A stretch of DNA of 64,000 nt from an uncultured Candidatus Saccharibacteria bacterium (GTDB lineage Bacteria; Patescibacteriota; Minisyncoccia; Phycocordibacterales; UBA9973), in contig CAYSMH010000002.1 of assembly GCA_964432275.1 (NCBI GenBank), positions 9,418 through 73,417 on the forward strand, given 5' to 3'. Position 1 is the stretch's first letter; the number at the start of each line of letters is the position of its first letter. A program made the translations under genes and the position numbers. Under the pieces are notes generated by a model. It was given only the letters and a program-made list of their open reading frames with translations, ran no database searches and was not told the DNA's origin. This document shows positions 3,394-58,553 of this stretch, in pieces.

Positions 3394-5193
3394 ATGACTA
3401 AAACAAAAAGTTTTATAAAAAGATCGCTACATTTTTTCAGACCGTTCTGGAGGTATTTTATTATTACTGTATTACTAATCATTGTTGGTCAGGCTATTTC
3501 GACGTTTACTCCATACTTGTTTGGTAAAGGTGTAGATGCTGTTATTAACGGTAACGTACGTACCACATTTATTTTCCTGGTTGTTTCTTTTTTGCTTACT
3601 ATCTTACAGGCACAGATTATCCAATACATAAAAGAATACATTGATATTAAAAAACTCGATGTAAATATTGAAAAAGCACTTTCAGTTATTTCACTCAACC
3701 GCATGCTCCGGTTTTCTATTGGACAACACATCAACGAACACTCTGGGGTCAAACAAACAATTGTGAACAAAGGTCAAAATGCACTTATCGGTTTTGTAAA
3801 TACTTTGATATACGAAATCTTGCAGATCGGTATTCAAATATTGGTTACACTCACTATTTTGACACTCTTTGATTGGAGAGTCGGAGCAACGGCGTTTGCA
3901 TTTGTTTTACTCCATATCCTCATTTCCAATAGACGTAATAAGAACTTTTATCCCATTATTGACGCTGTGCGGAAAAAGAACCAAAGCCAGTCAAAGCTCC
4001 AATCTGAGCTCTTTCGAAACTCAACACTTGTAATCACAGAGGGACAAGAAGATAAAACTGTACAAGAATTTAATGAATCCTATACAAAAGTTACAAATTT
4101 TACTATTTCCACATGGATCAAATATATAAAGTCTTACTACGGTCAAAAATTTGTATTAATACTTGGTAGGTACGGGACACTCGCAATTGGTATTTATTTC
4201 ATTTTTATGGGCTATCATTCTGTGGGTATGTTTGTTACATTTTATTCATGGACAGGCTCAATTTTTGACAATATAAACAATCTCATGAACACACAACGAC
4301 GTACAATGTCGCAAATTGTTGAGATCAATAAATATTACGATCTTCTTGATATTATTCCTGATATCAACCCCAACATCGGCGGCAAAACTATTGCGGATCT
4401 AAAAGGTGAAATCCAATTCAAAGACGTAAGCTTCGCATATCCATACCGTCAGTCTGCAGAACAAATAGAAAATGAAGAAGAGTCAGAGGGTAACGAACTA
4501 GAGCATACGGTAGAGAACGTAAGCTTCACGATACCCGCCGGAGCAAAAGTAGGATTTGTAGGGGTATCTGGATCGGGCAAAAGTACTATCGTGAACCTCA
4601 TGCGTCGATACTACGACACCACAAGCGGAGAAATACTGATTGATGGTGAACCCCTCAAGGAACTCGATCTCCACTGGCTCCGTAGTCAGATCGGTAACGT
4701 AGAGCAAAAAATTGACCTCTTTGATCGAAGTATCAGAGACAACATATTGTTCGGACTTCCTGCTCATACAGAAATAAGCGATGAGAAGCTACAAAAAGCA
4801 GTCAAAGATGCATCACTGACCGACTTCGTCACCAAACTCAAAGACCACGGGCTCGACACAGTCATTGGTGAAGGTGGTATCAAGGTCTCTGGCGGAGAAC
4901 GACAACGTGTCGGTATTGCACGAGCTCTTGCAAAAGATCCGTGCATTCTGATATTTGACGAGGCGACATCAGCCCTCGACTCGATGAGTGAACACATCGT
5001 GCAGCAGTCGATAGACGAAGCACGGAAAGGAAAGACGGCGATCATCATTGCTCATCGTCTCTCTACAGTGAAAAACTGTGACAAGATCCTTGTGTTTCGT
5101 CACGGTATTCTCCTTGCGCAAGGTTCGCATGATGAACTCATCATGAGTTGCGAATACTATGCCGATCTCGTGGAGCATCAAATGGTTGCGTAA
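3394..5193 (+). CDS. ABC exporter, fused permease/ATPase (MsbA/multidrug-exporter-like)
   Basis: 599 aa; 6 predicted N-terminal TM helices; Walker A GVSGSGKST, signature VSGGERQRVGIARAL, Walker B ILIFDEATSALD. Confidence 0.85.
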   Translation: MTKTKSFIKRSLHFFRPFWRYFIITVLLIIVGQAISTFTPYLFGKGVDAVINGNVRTTFIFLVVSFLLTILQAQIIQYIKEYIDIKKLDVNIEKALSVISLNRMLRFSIGQHINEHSGVKQTIVNKGQNALIGFVNTLIYEILQIGIQILVTLTILTLFDWRVGATAFAFVLLHILISNRRNKNFYPIIDAVRKKNQSQSKLQSELFRNSTLVITEGQEDKTVQEFNESYTKVTNFTISTWIKYIKSYYGQKFVLILGRYGTLAIGIYFIFMGYHSVGMFVTFYSWTGSIFDNINNLMNTQRRTMSQIVEINKYYDLLDIIPDINPNIGGKTIADLKGEIQFKDVSFAYPYRQSAEQIENEEESEGNELEHTVENVSFTIPAGAKVGFVGVSGSGKSTIVNLMRRYYDTTSGEILIDGEPLKELDLHWLRSQIGNVEQKIDLFDRSIRDNILFGLPAHTEISDEKLQKAVKDASLTDFVTKLKDHGLDTVIGEGGIKVSGGERQRVGIARALAKDPCILIFDEATSALDSMSEHIVQQSIDEARKGKTAIIIAHRLSTVKNCDKILVFRHGILLAQGSHDELIMSCEYYADLVEHQMVA

Positions 5194-5211
5194 TGTACTT
5201 TTATTTAACTT

Positions 5212-5240
5212 AAAGCCCGGCAACCCCGGGCTTTTTTTAT
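5212..5240 (+). terminator. rho-independent terminator after ABC exporter
   Basis: gcccgg-caacc-ccgggc hairpin followed by ttttttt. Confidence 0.6.
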
Positions 5241-5269
5241 TGTCCAATTTATGGCACAATGCTGAAACT

Positions 5270-6694
5270 ATGGAACGAACATACATTGGTGATTTGGGCG
5301 CAAAGGCAGGGGAGACTGTACTGATCAAGGGCTGGATCGATGTGCGTCGCGACCAGGGGAAAATGGTCTTTTTTGACTTCAGAGACATGACCGGCACAAT
5401 CCAAGGTGTTGTGCTTCCTATGCGCCCCGAAGTGATCGAGATAGCCAAGACCTGCCGCCCAGAAACAGTGGTAGCCGTCGAAGGTATCGTCAACAAGCGC
5501 CCAGAGAGAAATGTAGTAGCTGATAAACAAAATGGGGATATTGAGCTCGAAGTAACCGGTATCACCATACTCAACCACGCAGAGCCTCTCCCGTTTGAGA
5601 TCAATGTCGACACCAAAGACGTCGGCGAAGAAACACGCCTCACTCACCGATATCTCGACCTACGATCTGCTCGCATGCAACGCAACATTCGTATGCGTGA
5701 TGCAGTGATCAAGCATGCACGAGACTTCTTGCACAATGAAAAGTTCATCGAAGTAGAAACTCCGATCCTTACAAAAAGTACTCCTGAGGGTGCGCGTGAC
5801 TATGTGGTGCCATCACGTATTTATCCTGGAGCATTTTATGCGCTGCCACAATCACCACAACAATACAAACAGCTTCTGATGAGCGGAGGTATCGAGCGAT
5901 ATTTCCAGATCGCAAAATGTATGCGCGACGAAGACGGACGCGGGGATCGTCAGCCAGAGTTTACACAACTCGACATGGAGCTTTCATTTGTGGATCGTGA
6001 AGATGTGATGAAGCTCAATGAAGCACTCCTCATCGATATCGTCACCAAGCTTTTCCCTAAGAAAAAGATCCAAGAAATCCCATTTCCACGTATCTCATAT
6101 GCAGATGCAATGGCAAAATACGGTAACGATCGTCCAGATATTCGCACCGACAAAGAAGACCCGAACCTCCTCGCATTTTGCTGGGTAGTAGACTTCCCAT
6201 TCTTTGAACGCACTGACAAAAGTGACAACCCTCAAGCAGAAGGCGAGTGGACATTTACCCACAACCCATTTTCTCGCCCAATCGAGGATCATATGGAAAA
6301 CTTGATGGAGAAAAAAGATCTCGCATCTATCCTCACTACGCAGTACGATATTTGTCTCAACGGATACGAAATCGGGGGTGGCTCTATTCGTAACCACACA
6401 TTTGAAGCTCTTGCCAAAGTATTTGAAATCCTCGGGTACAAACTAGAAGACATCGAAACAAACTTTGGTCACATGCTCACTGCATTCAAGACCGGTACTC
6501 CTCCACACGGCGGTATTGCCTGGGGTCTCGATCGCTTCTTGATGCTCCTGCTCAATGAACCAAACATCCGCGAAGTCATCGCCTTTCCAAAGACTGGAGA
6601 AGGGAAGGACCCAATGATGCAGGCACCGTCAGAAATTTCTCAGAAACAGTTAGACGAGCTCAATATTGTATTGAAAAAAATTGAGAAGAAATAA
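5270..6694 (+). CDS. aspS: aspartyl-tRNA synthetase, short form lacking the bacterial GAD insertion (possibly non-discriminating)
   Basis: Class IIb motifs: [29 protein letters not shown] (E. coli AspRS has [24 protein letters not shown]), [22 protein letters not shown]; ORF-track start 5159 rejected because it overlaps the upstream gene and terminator; ATG at 5270 (METMERTY). Confidence 0.85.
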   Translation: [474 protein letters not shown]

Positions 6695-50347: not shown

Positions 50348-50422
50348 GGCCCTATCGTCTATCGGTTAGGACGGAAGCTTCTCAAGCTTCAAAGCGGGGT
50401 TCGATTCCCCGTAGGGTCACCA
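50348..50422 (+). tRNA. tRNA-Glu (anticodon CUC) with encoded CCA
   Basis: Hand-folded: acceptor ggcccta/tagggtc (one G-U), D stem gtct/ggac, anticodon stem gaagc/gcttc with loop ttCTCaa, T arm cgggg-ttcgatt-ccccg, discriminator A then CCA. Confidence 0.8.
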
Positions 50423-50433
50423 TTTAGAGCTAG

Positions 50434-50447
50434 CCCGAGAAGGCTCA
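50434..50447 (+). repeat. att-like repeat copy 0 (cccgagaaggctca) 11 nt after tRNA-Glu
   Basis: Degenerate copy of the tRNA 3-prime end ccccgtagggtcacca. Confidence 0.45.
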
Positions 50448-50494
50448 TTAAGAGGTATTCTTGATTTAATTAAAATGCTAGGATTCCATTTGTA

Positions 50495-56469: not shown

Positions 56470-56904
56470 ATGTTTATGGAAATAATTGAAATGACATCAG
56501 AGCAAGAATCTGAATTAAAGATTTTCAAAGGACTTGTATGGCCTGAAGCCGACAAGGACCATTATGGCGAAAATCAACCAAATTTTTCTCGAGATGAATT
56601 TACATTGATTGCAAAAGAAGACAGTGAAATTGTCGGATACATCTCAGTTGTTATTGACACTGGTGTTGCACAAATTGAACCACTTATGGTTAAAACTGAT
56701 TTGAAAGGAAAAGGGATAGGAACAAAACTACTTCAAAGTGCTGAAGAAAAAGCAAAGGAGTTGGGGGTTCATAAGGTGTGGCTTGAAACCGGTTCTGACT
56801 GGCAAGCGAAAGGCTTTTATGAAAAACATGGCTATCAAGTTCGTAGTGTACTACCAAACCATTCAGGAGGAAAAGAATTTGTGTTAATGGATAAAATGAT
56901 CTAA
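56470..56904 (+). CDS. GNAT-family N-acetyltransferase
   Basis: IVGYISVVIDTGVAQIEPLMVKTDLKGKGIGTKLLQSAEEKAKELGVHKVWLET (acetyl-CoA-binding motif A); tataat immediately upstream; ORF-track GTG extension to 56431 rejected. Confidence 0.7.
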   Translation: MFMEIIEMTSEQESELKIFKGLVWPEADKDHYGENQPNFSRDEFTLIAKEDSEIVGYISVVIDTGVAQIEPLMVKTDLKGKGIGTKLLQSAEEKAKELGVHKVWLETGSDWQAKGFYEKHGYQVRSVLPNHSGGKEFVLMDKMI

Positions 56905-56907
56905 CAC

Positions 56908-56921
56908 CCGAGAAGGGTCAA
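56908..56921 (+). repeat. att-like repeat copy A (cccgagaagggtca)
   Basis: Identical to copy 0 except one base; lies right after the GNAT stop codon. Confidence 0.45.
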
Positions 56922-57056
56922 TTTAAAATCCAAGATAATAGTGAAATAACCTTACAGGGTAATGGATCAAAAGGTTCTATCTCGAAAAGGTTCACAGAAT
57001 CTGAGAAAGAAAAAAGCCGAACGGTTAGGTTCGACAAAAAATAATTAATTCCATAT

Positions 57057-57638
57057 CTACTCTGGTGAAAGCTGCAATCCTGCCTCTACTAACGCTTGGC
57101 TTATCTCGCTTGCAAACCGTTGCGCAAAGTTTCTGAATTTTATCAGGTCACTTTCTTTGTACTGAACTAAATCTCTCAGTTGAAATATTTTTGCCGAATT
57201 TAAGCAATTCTTTGCACGTACTGATATATTCAGATCATCGATCGTTAGCTTAGCAAGGATGTCTTCCTGTTCCTGAGTAAATCCATCTTCTGATAGTACC
57301 GAAGTCCAGAAACCACTTGGACGATTAAATGAGTACACAAAGCAACTTACCCTTTCAGCTGTAGGAATTTTGTGTTGAATAACAGTACCCAGAGCTTTGG
57401 CAAGCTTTTGTTTGACTGTAGAAGTACACATCGGTTTTTCGAACACCGTCGCTTCAACGACAATATCTGTTCCGAGACCGTATTGCATCAAATCAGATGG
57501 GTACAAGAGCGTCATATCTTTTTCGCTTTTGTAACCGAGTTCTTCAATACTGACAACTGCCGCAACAAGTGCGTTATGGAGGTCGTGCAGTTCCTTTTCT
57601 TCCATTTTCGGAAGACACCATGTTTTGATTACAGGCAT
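57057..57638 (-). CDS. fusion protein: tautomerase-superfamily-like N-terminal region (Pro-1) plus RNA polymerase alpha-CTD-like HhH domain
   Basis: Starts MPVIKTW...KELHDLHNALVAAVVSIEELGYKSEKDMTLLYPSDL (4-OT-like beta-alpha-beta with a Pro after Met); C-terminal LNISVRAKNCLNSAKIFQLRDLVQYKESDLIKFRNFAQRFASEISQALVEAGLQL matches the alpha-CTD pattern. Confidence 0.45.
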   Translation of the reverse strand: MPVIKTWCLPKMEEKELHDLHNALVAAVVSIEELGYKSEKDMTLLYPSDLMQYGLGTDIVVEATVFEKPMCTSTVKQKLAKALGTVIQHKIPTAERVSCFVYSFNRPSGFWTSVLSEDGFTQEQEDILAKLTIDDLNISVRAKNCLNSAKIFQLRDLVQYKESDLIKFRNFAQRFASEISQALVEAGLQLSPE

Positions 57639-57741
57639 ATAGAATAGTTTTGAGTTTAAAATGAATTTGCTCCCACTCTACCGTATTTATTGACAAAGTC
57701 AAGGTTGGGTTGTAATGTAATAAAAACTAAAACTTTTACAT

Positions 57742-58332
57742 ATGGTTAACGCAAGCAAAGTAAAGCAGCAACGCTTCTGGAATATGTGGCGCACATCTGG
57801 CGCCATAGGCACCATTACCACCTACCCCTCTGCGGTAGTTCGGGAAATTGACGGCCAATTAGTATTAGATGATCCAATGGCAGCCGCAATGATCCGGGCG
57901 ATAGAAAAGGATAACTGTAAAAATACATTCATCGTTCAAAAAGATCGGGTTGAACATTTCAAAAATAGAATGGCTCAAAAACAACTATCTCCGCAGGATG
58001 CAGTGATTGTACTGATTAATGCTGATGATGTTCACGGCACCGACCTTGCGGAGCACTTAATGCCTGGGACTGATTGGCAAGCCATGCGTGATAACGGCGA
58101 AATACCGTTCGCACACGGACTTACTACAAAGGAAGGTATGGTGGGCATCCTAAAACTCTTTGACAAAGAAGCATCAAAGAAATTAGAAAGAATGACGACC
58201 ACAGCTGTTGTGGTTGTCGATCACGGAGTTGCGGAGGTTTTTGATGCAGATAACCCGAATGGCGAAACAGTTATTCCATCTAGGCTGCCTGGGAGAATGA
58301 GACAGTTTATGAACGGCGACGGCGATTGGTAA
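57742..58332 (+). CDS. hypothetical protein (196 aa), divergent partner of the tautomerase/alpha-CTD gene
   Basis: ATG ORF; promoter ttgaca-17-taatgt with palindrome ttgacaaagtcaa in the shared 100-bp intergenic region. Confidence 0.4.
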   Translation: MVNASKVKQQRFWNMWRTSGAIGTITTYPSAVVREIDGQLVLDDPMAAAMIRAIEKDNCKNTFIVQKDRVEHFKNRMAQKQLSPQDAVIVLINADDVHGTDLAEHLMPGTDWQAMRDNGEIPFAHGLTTKEGMVGILKLFDKEASKKLERMTTTAVVVVDHGVAEVFDADNPNGETVIPSRLPGRMRQFMNGDGDW

Positions 58333-58457
58333 AAAGCCAAACAAAAATTTTGAGCCTGATTTTTTAGTCAGGCTCTTTTTATTGAAATATGGATTGTGAC
58401 AGATAGGTCTAACTTTATAAGGCAATTCCGTGTCACTTTTGTCACTTTTTATAGACG

Positions 58458-58471
58458 CACGAGAAGGGTCG
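58458..58471 (+). repeat. att-like repeat copy B (cacgagaagggtcg)
   Basis: Shares the 11-mer cgagaagggtc with copies A and C. Confidence 0.4.
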
Positions 58472-58516
58472 GTACGGAATATGGAAAATGGTAGAACGGG
58501 CATTGTGGGGCAAGGC

Positions 58517-58553
58517 GGAGCGGGGTTCTATCTCGAGAAGGGTCACCATTTTA
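58517..58553 (+). repeat. att-like repeat copy C / degenerate tRNA-Glu 3-prime half (gcggggttctatctcgagaagggtcacca)
   Basis: Aligns to the tRNA T-arm and acceptor 3-prime strand plus CCA (gcggggttcgattccccgtagggtcacca), but the T-stem no longer pairs; preceded by a D-arm-like tggtagaacg at 58488. Confidence 0.5.

Follow-up and report, generated by a model that had tools for sequence, protein, structure and literature searches.

ORF A, located in the 64-kb stretch of DNA analyzed here (the window), encodes a two-domain accessory protein in which a tautomerase-superfamily fold is combined with a helix-hairpin-helix of the type found at the C-terminus of the RNA polymerase alpha subunit (alpha-CTD). 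With a sigma-70-like promoter and a terminator of its own, the gene forms a self-contained unit, and it is cargo of mobile DNA: it lies in a recombinase-less cassette of 1.55 kb between two copies of a ~97-nt repeat (Table 1). In the literature, we found no description of a tautomerase-type fold combined with the DNA-binding domain of the RNA polymerase alpha tail. An initial inspection of the DNA without database searches, hereafter referred to as the sequence-only reading, had proposed a protein of 193 aa starting with MPVIKTW, and both the length and the start were confirmed, the Met being the first possible start codon following a stop. The two domains are joined by a short, acidic linker, the amino acids of which are 100% identical across three orthologues despite 83-88% nucleotide identity. 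Purifying selection acts on both domains (dN/dS 0.06-0.18), and the coding regions in the three loci (the window, L001 and L010) differ by 14-21% at the protein level.

Table 1. Features of the ORF A/ORF B cassette and its surroundings, in window coordinates.
Feature	Position	Strand	Remarks
tRNA-Glu(CTC)	50348-50422	+	ARAGORN; array anchor; bacterial attachment site presumed at its 3' end (GTAGGGTCACCA)
Left-end (P'-type) motif TTTAGAGCTAGCCCGAGAAGGCTCA	50423-50449	+	directly 3' of tRNA-Glu
Repeat copy A	56903-56999	+	R1 covariance model, 90.7 bits, E=7e-23
Terminator-like hairpin 3' of ORF A	57016-57035	-	terminator scan; within the cassette's degenerate left-end region (CTGAGAAAG + hairpin)
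ORF A	57057-57638	-	193 aa
ORF A C-terminal domain, residues 128-193	57060-57257	-	RNA polymerase alpha-CTD-type helix-hairpin-helix
ORF A linker, residues 114-127, VLSEDGFTQEQEDI	57258-57299	-	predicted disordered, pLDDT 49-57
ORF A N-terminal domain, residues 1-113	57300-57638	-	tautomerase-superfamily fold with Pro-1
Overlapping divergent sigma-70-like promoters and palindrome	57675-57718		P_A on the - strand, P_B on the + strand
ORF B	57742-58332	+	196 aa, divergent from ORF A
Intrinsic-terminator-like hairpin 3' of ORF B	58352-58375	+	terminator scan
Repeat copy B	58454-58550	+	R1 75.9 bits; with upstream GTCACTTTT x2 leader, 58430-58550

Fold comparison showed that the N-terminal domain of ORF A (N-domain, ~113 aa) has the fold of the Pro-1 enzymes. 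Like members of the tautomerase superfamily (4-oxalocrotonate tautomerase (4-OT) and fused 4-OT, cis-CaaD, CHMI, MIF, DUF1904), it consists of two consecutive beta-alpha-beta units, the building block of this superfamily, within ~110 aa, and its Pro directly follows the initiator Met. Two such units per monomer of ~110-130 aa are found in the fused 4-OT, MIF, CHMI, cis-CaaD and MSAD groups. The tautomerase-like nature of this part of the protein, as suspected initially, was therefore supported at the level of the fold, but sequence-only links to solved tautomerases failed. ORF A did not match PF01361, PF14552, PF14832, PF01187, PF02962 or PF08921, and, in contrast to the known superfamily, the N-domain family does not reach the threshold of any Pfam or NCBIfam tautomerase-superfamily model. 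A weak sequence echo of the fold was detected as sub-threshold PF01361 matches in 11 of 121 relatives (best E=4.9e-4). The best profile match to a 4-OT among PDB sequences had an E-value of only 0.31, and hhalign of the family to 4-OT and MIF was not significant; this includes the alignment in which FPxD..M.YGLG and GFW of the N-domain are in register with VPDQLMAFGG and GW of human MIF.

The N-domain family comprises 888 clusters and has no Pfam model. All 17 organism-named loci belong to CPR bacteria (Patescibacteria), which sets the family apart from the known superfamily, in a scan that used peptide patterns from close relatives and is thus biased toward these. The locus scan for relatives was run with the closer alignment A1 because the family profile was too diverse. 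Most members are stand-alone proteins of ~115 aa, scattered among mixed housekeeping genes, and no conserved neighbours of their genes were found. Pfam detected an alpha-CTD fusion in 7 of the 121 family representatives (~6%), and further fusions are present at the Saccharibacteria and Paceibacterota loci L019, L020 and L023. The unusual architecture proposed for ORF A was thus found again in divergent CPR lineages, which argues for its having been selected. Other C-terminal modules on the N-domain include Zn-ribbons, GNAT and unknown domains. This variety of fused domains, one of them DNA-binding, distinguishes the family from the known tautomerase superfamily, and a word search of the 2017 survey of that superfamily returned nothing on multidomain architecture, other domains or DNA-binding.

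Conservation of Pro-1 depends on the distance considered. It is kept in 7 of 7 close homologues and in 6 of the 7 alpha-CTD fusions, but across the 121 representatives Pro-1 is present in 71% and Leu in 24%. By comparison, only ~3% of the known superfamily are non-Pro-1 members (346 of >11,000 sequences; PMC5818174). The Leu forms are scattered among the Pro forms, the nearest neighbour being a Pro form for 21 of 28, and no position that co-varies with the Pro/Leu swap was found in the family alignment. The frequency of Leu makes an enzymatic tautomerase activity doubtful. Hence, of the fusion originally perceived, the alpha-CTD and the recurrence of the architecture in CPR stand, whereas the notion of a tautomerase enzyme is weakened, which leaves the assignment of the fold untouched. 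Together with the varied C-terminal modules, the toggling between Pro and Leu is more in keeping with a module for scaffolding or binding than with an enzyme that strictly needs Pro-1.

The earlier view of the C-terminal domain as an alpha-CTD was upheld by sequence and by fold. PF03118 matched residues 124-183 over profile positions 6-65 of 67 (E=1.7e-17, 63.3 bits versus a gathering cut-off of 23.8), and the domain adopts the compact helix-hairpin-helix fold. The likeness to the RpoA alpha-CTD extends over the whole ~65-aa domain, includes a VRxxNCL motif with equivalents of R265, N268 and C269, and amounts to 37% identity with the B. subtilis alpha-CTD in 1z3e (complex with Spx). As in RpoA, a flexible linker precedes the domain; unlike in RpoA, this linker is conserved in sequence, and the gene is carried on mobile DNA. 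We rejected the possibility that ORF A is RpoA itself: no N-terminal assembly domain (RNA_pol_L / RNA_pol_A_bac) was found, the N-domain has a different fold, and the NCBIfam rpoA models match by their last ~70 positions only (60.9 versus a cut-off of 227.8 bits). Since a tautomerase-fold domain takes the place of the alpha-NTD assembly domain, the product cannot be an RNA polymerase subunit. With respect to the UP-element DNA contacts (R265, N268, C269, G296, K298 and S299 of E. coli, the reference sequence being checked by residue identity at these positions), the window copy keeps the first three and has changed the others (G296->A, K298->R, S299->F), so that its second hairpin reads NFAQRF as opposed to N(L/F)GKKS in RpoA. 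The orthologue P0003 keeps all six equivalents, while P0002 keeps those of R, C, G and S with N268->Q and K298->R. The equivalents of G296, K298 and S299 are kept in most other fusions, and the L019-type fusions lack those of R265 and N268.

Short phage proteins designated 'RNA polymerase alpha subunit C-terminal domain' resemble ORF A in being alpha-CTD-based, encoded by mobile elements and distinct from RpoA. The best viral structural matches were BFVD entries of uncultured Caudovirales and of Rhodococcus phage Finch. Unlike a true counterpart of ORF A, however, these proteins match its C-terminal domain only, and no viral protein with a tautomerase-fold N-domain was found in IMG/VR, phage records or BFVD; IMG/VR likewise contained no member of the N-domain family or relative of ORF A. 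The matches obtained by tblastn against phage records were confined to the alpha-CTD part, none involving the N-domain; the annotated ones are rpoA genes (two of the records being Salmonella genome contigs), and most others are in unannotated records. A functional study of the short phage proteins was not found in the literature.

ORF A and ORF B are separated by 103 bp. In this region the sequence-only reading had noted ttgaca-17-taatgt with an overlapping palindrome, and both are indeed present. The promoter of ORF B on the + strand (P_B) reads TTGACA (57690-57695)-17-TAATGT (57713-57718), and that of ORF A on the - strand (P_A) reads TTGACT-16-TAGAGT (57702-57675). Because the palindrome, TTGACAAAGTCAA at 57690-57702, is shared by P_A, a simple reading of it is that two -35 boxes of opposite orientation overlap here. 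By itself it does not exceed chance, as TTGACNNNGTCAA with at most one mismatch has 3 matches in the window versus 3.24 expected. Together with the 30-nt ORF A leader it is invariant in L001 and L010, and only this invariance in two orthologous loci lends the palindrome support. Upstream of 17 other family members it does not occur. ORF B, which had been regarded as an ORFan, is nothing of the kind: it has at least 347 homologues at E<=1e-3, with ~60% identity across several CPR lineages. No PDB fold match was found for it, and by its sequence relatives it is a member of a conserved CPR family and the second cargo of the cassette. The divergent arrangement of the two genes is real, but it is conserved in no other locus examined; we thus have no evidence for a functional pair and rejected the idea of a conserved one.

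Our leading, albeit tentative, interpretation, which is drawn by analogy, is that the ORF A protein may be an oligomeric DNA-binding or transcription-modulating accessory protein. Proteins of the tautomerase superfamily form homo-oligomers (trimers of two-unit chains, or hexamers) with active sites at the subunit interfaces, and, by analogy with all solved two-unit members, the N-domain would trimerise. Such a trimer would display several flexibly tethered alpha-CTD modules, just as the alpha-NTD dimer of RNA polymerase presents two alpha-CTDs. With these modules the protein could bind A/T-rich DNA resembling UP elements, or the usual docking partners of the alpha-CTD, and so modulate the transcription of host or mobile-element genes. 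UP elements as well as many activators use the alpha-CTD as the hub for recruiting RNA polymerase, and the short phage proteins indicate that mobile elements deploy this domain outside RpoA. On the other hand, the changes of G296 and S299 in the window copy deviate from the DNA-binding consensus, no member of the N-domain family was found in IMG/VR, phage-record matches were limited to the alpha-CTD, and the Pro-1 retained in the ORF A clade leaves catalysis possible. Moreover, with most family members standing alone and without conserved neighbours, the ancestral role of the N-domain need not involve DNA.

The same observations bear on the alternatives. It is somewhat unlikely that the tethered alpha-CTDs act without binding DNA, as decoys or mimics that sequester proteins docking on the host alpha-CTD (activators, phage-encoded binders or modifiers), be it as a takeover factor of a mobile element or as an anti-phage decoy in an accessory, defence-like array. 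The close resemblance to the alpha-CTD of the Spx complex, the cargo status of the gene and the degraded second hairpin of the window copy are compatible with this role. So is the mosaic nature of the C-terminal domain, which between the window and L001 has diverged far more than the N-domain (dS 1.47 versus 0.27), as would be expected if it tracked a changing partner; yet its dN/dS of 0.14-0.18 gives no sign of diversifying selection, the R265 and N268 equivalents are kept, and there is no PADLOC or PHROG match. A working Pro-1 catalyst, recruited by the alpha-CTD to DNA or RNA polymerase for a tautomerase reaction or for iminium/Schiff-base chemistry such as an AP-lyase-like reaction, appears unlikely. 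The fold, the Pro next to the Met at the only possible start codon, and the retention of this residue in the closest homologues and nearly all fusions are in its favor, but the free exchange with Leu described above is not. Nor are the best-conserved residues of the N-domain (L9, P10, F46, P47, D49, W111), which look structural, the replacement of the family-consensus Arg at position 71 by Cys in the ORF A clade, or the lack of a significant sequence match to any characterized enzyme of the superfamily.

That the ORF A protein binds the palindrome over both -35 boxes and represses its own and the divergent promoter seems quite improbable. Palindrome and adjacent leader are unchanged in three loci despite the divergence of the proteins, and the similarity of L010 to the window ends just past the palindrome, which indicates that the palindrome travels with ORF A and not with the divergent gene. 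Nonetheless, a palindrome of the 5-3-5 type is expected by chance, the overlapping -35 hexamers explain it fully, it is not found upstream of other family members, and a trimer is mismatched to a dyad. In UP-element recognition the target of the alpha-CTD is the minor groove of A-tracts rather than a palindrome, and we know of no alpha-CTD-type domain that reads a palindrome. Finally, it is barely conceivable that ORF A is a functionless chimera, formed by chance from a small CPR protein and a captured rpoA fragment and now decaying in a degraded prophage. The cassette does lack a recombinase, the window has only ORF A and the repeats in common with the L001 prophage, and some residues of its alpha-CTD are non-consensus; but the reading frame is undisrupted over its full length, purifying selection acts on both domains and on the linker, promoter and leader are conserved, and the architecture is maintained in distant lineages.

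Proteins known to belong to the tautomerase superfamily are regarded as small enzymes or cytokines that consist of a single domain organized around Pro-1. The present relative of ~900 clusters departs from this picture twice, by free Pro-1/Leu swapping and by fusion to DNA-binding and other modules, which suggests that the fold has roles other than catalysis, as a scaffold or sensor. A mobile, probably multivalent alpha-CTD outside RpoA would be a plausible new way to interfere with transcription, and it would offer a handle on transcription control in CPR bacteria, to our knowledge a scarcely explored subject.

The att-like repeats that the sequence-only reading saw on both sides of the unit proved to be real, and both belong to the ~97-nt element that marks cassette and prophage ends. 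CGAGAAGGGTCA at 56909-56920 and CGAGAAGGGTCG at 58460-58471 each represent its 5' part, and the window contains 4 occurrences of the motif CGAGAAGGSTCA versus 0.46 expected, all of them on the + strand and between 50.4 and 58.5 kb. Copy A closes the upstream 6.5-kb unit on its right side and at the same time delimits the ORF A/B cassette on the left, and it is 80% identical to the copy at the prophage end in L001. The cassette ends on the right in copy B, which matches L001 with 74% identity over 148 nt and whose last 33 nt imitate the end of the tRNA-Glu gene: the 3' 33 nt of the latter recur at 58519-58551 with 82% identity (local alignment score 43 versus a shuffle mean of 16.8). Direct repeats that stem from a tRNA 3' end thus flank the inserted DNA, which lies downstream of the tRNA and in the same orientation, as is characteristic of att sites. 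No recombinase homologue was found in the 64-kb window and no integrase match among the island proteins, so that the unit would either depend on mobilisation in trans or be fixed. We rejected the repeat as a tRNA or tmRNA, and as a dispersed MITE because the copies are co-oriented and clustered, the only two full copies of the window lying in the tRNA-Glu island. Neither the window repeats nor those of six other loci had a match in Rfam. The 11-bp stem of the repeat is 92% paired with 6 doubly changed pairs, which exceeds all 500 shuffles and all slid controls in an alignment that was fitted to the model and had one stem side fixed by the search pattern. Scans of IMG/VR for the repeat produced only chance matches (7 with a gapped pattern; one, in coding sequence, with an 18-mer).

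The ~97-nt element separates tightly packed cassettes in co-oriented arrays downstream of tRNA-Glu. Six other repeat-bearing loci have a co-oriented tRNA-Glu 0.9-9.4 kb upstream. The cassette ORFs are mutually unrelated, and tandem paralogues were therefore rejected as an account of the arrays. The element also marks a prophage end in a related genome (L001), with an ORF A homologue of 86% identity at 1.4 kb from the repeat and genes for TerS, TerL and a ParB-methylase adjoining the prophage-borne homologue. The similarity between L001 and the window spans exactly promoter and ORF A (57058-57732). ORF A could be a phage moron, an accessory transcription unit that is autonomous within a prophage: promoter-like and terminator-like sites lie on its two sides, and a homologue is in a prophage with TerS and TerL. 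A large serine recombinase gene is found at a distance of 0.8 kb from a homologue of 79% identity; such recombinases adjoin one homologue each of ORF A (L010) and ORF B (L011), and related ones are present in 6 other array loci. The repeat coincides with the edge of conserved element DNA in different genomes: L001, L002 and L003 share 99.9% identity as far as ...GGCTCACAAA, and the DNA past this point is unrelated. Judging from these sequences, the bracketing repeats probably behave as recombination sites or element ends.

The arrays are reminiscent of integron cassette arrays in their co-oriented, tightly packed, mostly single and mutually unrelated ORFs, and of attC-separated cassettes in that a ~100-nt repeat with conserved ends, variable centre and hairpin potential follows 5-25 nt after each ORF. 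The likeness is confined to this organization. Unlike attC, the repeat lacks an R/L-box consensus and, by reading, a GTTRRRY core at its ends; the anchor is a tRNA-Glu 3' end rather than attI beside intI; the arrays are linked to a large serine recombinase rather than to the tyrosine recombinase IntI; units range from 0.26 kb to a prophage of >8 kb; and the window cassette has its own promoters. Tandem accretion is known from CIMEs beside ICEs at tRNA genes and from SCC composite islands formed by Ccr large serine recombinases. These systems share with the arrays units bounded by att-type repeats from a target-gene 3' end, some of them without a recombinase and presumably mobilised in trans, and, for SCC, the link to serine recombinases. 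They differ in that many array units are of single-gene size, that the ~97-nt repeat far exceeds a simple core direct repeat in length and is also better conserved, and that the hosts are CPR bacteria in which array mobility is putative.

Taken jointly, the data could reflect an undescribed integron-like gene-capture system of CPR bacteria whose alpha-CTD display cargo mimics RNA polymerase alpha, a combination that we regard as unlikely in its entirety. In such a system, large serine recombinases would move cassettes in arrays anchored at the tRNA-Glu 3' end, the ~97-nt, possibly folded, element would be the recombination site between cassettes, and the recurrent cargo would be a trimeric protein with a tautomerase-fold scaffold and the RNA polymerase alpha-CTD. 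By competing for UP elements or alpha-CTD-binding factors, this protein might reprogram transcription in conflicts between mobile elements and hosts. Through the repeats on either side of ORF A, arrays of single-gene cassettes came to light that are anchored at tRNA-Glu and linked to large serine recombinases. If active, these arrays would provide organisms with tiny genomes with an integron-like route of gene capture, and could be a source of new att-site pairs for serine integrases.

The left-end motif lies 3' of tRNA-Glu in 5 of 7 loci. Its type (..GCTAGC.CGAGAAG..) directly follows tRNA-Glu in L036, L044, L063 and L064, and a repeat end in L033, L043, L049, L057/58 and L065. The region of CTGAGAAAG and the hairpin downstream of ORF A resembles, by reading of the sequences, the left-end motif plus hairpin of L044, L064 and L065. 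The putative att junction in the arrays reads ...GGTTCTATCTCGAGAAGGCTCACCA+ACTCGTGCTAGCACGAGAAGCAT.

ORF A, which opens with MPVIKTW as the sequence-only reading had it, at the first start codon past an in-frame stop, ends in the predicted alpha-CTD (Pfam RNA_pol_A_CTD at residues 124-183, E=1.7e-17) and matches RpoA among the PDB sequences down to E=1e-10. Unlike RpoA, it has no alpha-NTD, and for this reason it was ruled out that ORF A is RpoA itself. The AlphaFold model (mean pLDDT 82) consists of an N-domain, a disordered linker (residues 105-121) and a helical C-domain, the elements of the N-domain following in the order b(3-7) a(14-29) b(43-45) b(58-66) a(73-90) b(96-104). The model shows an N-domain of the b-a-b type. 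At the level of sequence, alignments of this domain to 4-OT or MIF by hhalign were not significant, though they were in register, and nothing significant was found for it among the PDB sequences. Of 121 relatives, 11 gave matches to PF01361, all below threshold (E=4.9e-4 at best), and as judged from sequence the link to tautomerases amounts to no more than this recurring faint echo. The tautomerase-like assignment stands as to fold and Pro-1, but no curated sequence model of the tautomerase superfamily (TSF) recognises ORF A, and the protein is most fittingly placed in a distant family of this fold that is new and has a new domain architecture.

As modelled, ORF A tethers a tautomerase-fold domain with Pro-1 to an alpha-CTD that keeps most DNA-contact residues. 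The window copy retains the equivalents of R265, N268 and C269 and carries the changes G296 to A, K298 to R and S299 to F; among its orthologues, P0003 retains all six contact residues and P0002 shows N268 to Q and K298 to R. What the sequence-only reading observed is largely right, and its central proposal, an unusual tautomerase-like/alpha-CTD fusion on a cassette bracketed by att-like repeats, is upheld. In the literature, the coverage of which was incomplete, no account of such a fusion turned up, so that this is absence of evidence only. Within the same incomplete coverage we found neither characterised stand-alone alpha-CTD proteins nor a description of such cassette arrays in Patescibacteria.

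A word-indexed search returned only seven relatives, three of them full-length (100, 86 and 79% identity) and four consisting of the N-domain alone (114-121 aa), and a profile search of a 1.84-billion-protein representative library gave 888 clusters at E<=1e-3. All 17 GTDB species-genome loci with the N-domain family belong to CPR/Patescibacteria (Kaiser-, Nomura-, Campbell- and Nealsonbacteria, Saccharibacteria, Paceibacterota), a sample that is biased because the scan patterns were derived from close relatives. Most members stand alone (~112-125 aa), and their neighbours are unrelated housekeeping genes. The domain-architecture search that had been suggested did yield fusions, with alpha-CTD or similar HhH tails in 7 of 121 representatives by Pfam and at loci L019, L020 and L023. 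Judged by these matches, the fusion recurs across divergent lineages. Other C-terminal modules of longer members are Zn-ribbons, one GNAT, and a ~160-aa and a Cys-rich ~100-aa domain, both of unknown type. The best-conserved N-domain positions are L9, P10, F46, P47, D49 and W111, and the clade of the window has Cys where the consensus is Arg71. Pro-1 is partly conserved among the homologues: Met is followed by Pro in 71% of the family and by Leu in 24% (position 2 of an alignment of 121 representatives). The Leu forms are scattered (the nearest neighbour is a Pro form in 21 of 28), and no co-varying position was found in this alignment. Such alternation with neither phylogenetic clustering nor a co-varying site is unusual where the chemistry of a fold is defined by Pro-1. 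Only 346 of more than 11,000 catalogued TSF sequences lack this residue, and the authors of that survey consider that such proteins may be non-enzymatic (PMC5818174).

Comparison of the orthologues in the window, the prophage-type locus L001 and L010 gave dN/dS values of 0.06-0.11 in the N-domain and of 0.14-0.18 in the CTD; the amino acids of the 14-residue acidic linker are invariant despite changes in 12-17% of its nucleotides. These sequence comparisons show purifying selection on both domains and on the linker. Between the window and L001, dS is 0.27 in the N-domain versus 1.47 in the CTD (DNA identity 94% and 69%; linker and CTD lie at 57060-57299 in the window, compared with 6340-6579 in L001), which indicates that ORF A is mosaic and that its two halves differ in history, with the joint at the linker. 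Despite a prediction of disorder, the 14 amino acids of this joint do not vary.

Features of the ORF A/B locus and of related loci
Feature	Position	Strand	Remarks
tRNA-Glu(CTC) gene	50348-50422		start of the low-GC stretch that includes ORF A/B
Upstream 6.5-kb island unit	50495-56381		genes for 796-aa membrane protein, 149-aa and 1008-aa proteins
Repeat copy A	56903-56999		covariance model
ORF A	57057-57638	-	193 aa
ORF A leader	57639-57668	-	~30 nt
Palindrome TTGACAAAGTCAA	57690-57702		made up of both -35 boxes together
ORF A promoter-like site TTGACT-16-TAGAGT	A-B spacer	-	promoter scan
ORF B promoter-like site TTGACA-17-TAATGT	A-B spacer	+	sequence
ORF B	57742-58332	+	196 aa; divergent to ORF A, 103-bp spacer
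Repeat copy B	58454-58550		covariance model
Prophage-like element	L001 4579-12582		also L002, L003
Serine recombinase family	L064 7443-8900; L044 2979-4088; L046; L033; L045; L070		repeat-bearing loci
Serine recombinase family	L010 1519-2172; L011 1124-1327		beside ORF A / ORF B homologue
L019 array	3817-5290		repeat ~120 nt
L019 fusion gene, tautomerase-fold/HhH	4001-4558

The GC content is 0.34-0.42 across 50.5-60 kb of the window versus ~0.43-0.50 outside. A terminator scan placed terminator-like hairpins 3' of both ORFs, and ORF A would have its own promoter and terminator, both predicted. ORF B had been taken for an ORFan, wrongly. At the loci examined, no close ORF B homologue adjoins an ORF A homologue or vice versa, and in L001 a 97-aa gene takes the place of ORF B at the conserved bidirectional promoter. 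The A/U-rich ORF A leader has no Shine-Dalgarno sequence, GGAGG being present in most other family members, and it is near-constant across three loci despite diverged coding regions. The three proteins of the upstream unit had no significant match in Pfam, NCBIfam, PHROGs or PADLOC; they are followed by the gene for a GNAT acetyltransferase, which ends with its stop codon right against repeat copy A.

Each of the two att-like motifs noticed earlier proved to be the 5' portion of a longer element, of ~97 nt, with the consensus GC[A/T]CGAGAAGGGTC, about 35 variable nt followed by (A/G)CCTTAC.GGG.AATGAAT, and GGTTCTATCTCGAGAAGGCTCAC(CA) at the 3' end. Its final ~30 nt are similar to the tRNA-Glu 3' end, and its 3' 23-mer has exact matches in 41 metagenome contigs. 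A covariance model detected 67 copies in the DNA collected for analysis, and Rfam gave no match. RNAalifold predicts a possible fold in which CGAGAAGGGTC and GGTTCT.TCTCG form an 11-bp stem that includes three G-U pairs; the pair counts of this stem exceed all controls, in an alignment that was itself fitted to the model. Three contigs (L001-L003) are 99.9% identical through ...GGCTCACAAA and unrelated past it, their shared side carrying an 86% ORF A homologue 1.4 kb from the repeat and, beyond it, a ParB-methylase and then the small and large terminase subunits. By these junctions and by the tRNA, array and recombinase contexts described below, the element acts like a site of recombination or the end of an element, in keeping with the supposed att-like brackets, and the gene contexts show ORF A to be carried on mobile DNA. 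In these contigs, which belong to MAGs of Candidatus Pacebacteria, the end of the prophage-like element coincides exactly with the repeat; its cargo comprises a ParB-like/N6_N4 DNA methylase, the TerS and TerL subunits and an S66 LD-carboxypeptidase.

At seven loci a co-oriented tRNA-Glu gene lies 0.9-9.4 kb upstream of the repeat, and the motif ..GCTAGC.CGAGAAG.. follows the tRNA in five of these and also follows many repeat copies. Many loci have 2-4 co-oriented copies spaced by 260-2000 nt, usually with one ORF between them that has the orientation of the repeat (16 vs 5) and stops 5-25 nt short of the following copy. The ORFs bear no relation to one another, their types being histidine phosphatase, HD domains, UbiA-like, nucleotidyltransferase-like and unknown. 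Such tightly packed arrays of single-gene cassettes 3' of tRNA-Glu are present in many CPR metagenome contigs, as seen from the window and the loci L033-L073 and L001-L003. Their layout recalls integrons and their logic the accretion of CIME or SCC, but in site and recombinase they differ from both. Homologous large serine recombinases (Resolvase, Recombinase and Zn_ribbon_recom domains) were found in six repeat-bearing array loci, another lies at a distance of 0.8 kb from the ORF A homologue of 79% identity, and a remnant lies near an ORF B homologue. The homologue search found no recombinase in the 64-kb window, and the 1.55-kb ORF A/B unit has a degenerate left-end motif with a hairpin on one side and the repeat on the other; because of these features, the best reading of this unit is a putative mini-element that lacks a recombinase and forms part of a tandem array. 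Read by eye, the junction ...A[TCTCG]AGAAGGCTCAC-CA-ACTCGTGCTAGCA[CGAGA]AG has the dyad symmetry expected of a serine-integrase attP and is a candidate for such a site.

At L019, in a Saccharibacteria genome, two small cassettes next to tRNA-Ala, the first of them a homologous fusion gene, are bounded by a repeat of another kind, which begins within the tRNA-Ala 3' end; the last 45 nt of this repeat correspond to that 3' end and a terminator hairpin. These cassettes are an independent parallel to the tRNA-Glu arrays. L018 has similar partial copies of a tRNA-His 3' end, and in L020 and L024 a tRNA precedes the gene of the N-domain family by ~100-115 nt.

Our preferred reading, a tentative one, is that ORF A is a DNA-binding protein or transcription modulator. 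By analogy with other two-unit TSF proteins, the N-domain would oligomerise and display several alpha-CTD modules, which might attach to A/T-rich DNA or to partners of alpha-CTD and change transcription in this way. The free exchange of Pro and Leu in the family and its promiscuous fusions speak for a scaffold or binding module rather than for Pro-1 catalysis. Catalysis may still occur in the Pro-bearing clade of the window; a DNA-targeted enzyme we consider doubtful, and that ORF A serves as a protein decoy is unlikely too, if slightly less so.

Autoregulation through the palindrome is improbable. The spacer does hold the TTGACA-17-TAATGT site and the palindrome that had been pointed out, and the palindrome and the 30-nt leader are invariant or almost so in the window, L001 and L010, the similarity of L010 to the window ending just past the palindrome. 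However, such palindromes are expected by chance, this one occurs once in the window, and it was not found 5' of 17 other family members. That ORF A is a dead chimera we regard as scarcely credible. Compared with these alternatives, a modulator remains the reading we prefer.

BFVD contains phage proteins of 105-240 aa annotated solely as 'RNA polymerase alpha subunit C-terminal domain' (A0A6J5M7I6, A0A6J5L490, A0A6J5NZM6, A0A2P1JY10), for which the literature yielded no functional study. Mobile elements seem to use the alpha-CTD domain repeatedly outside RpoA.
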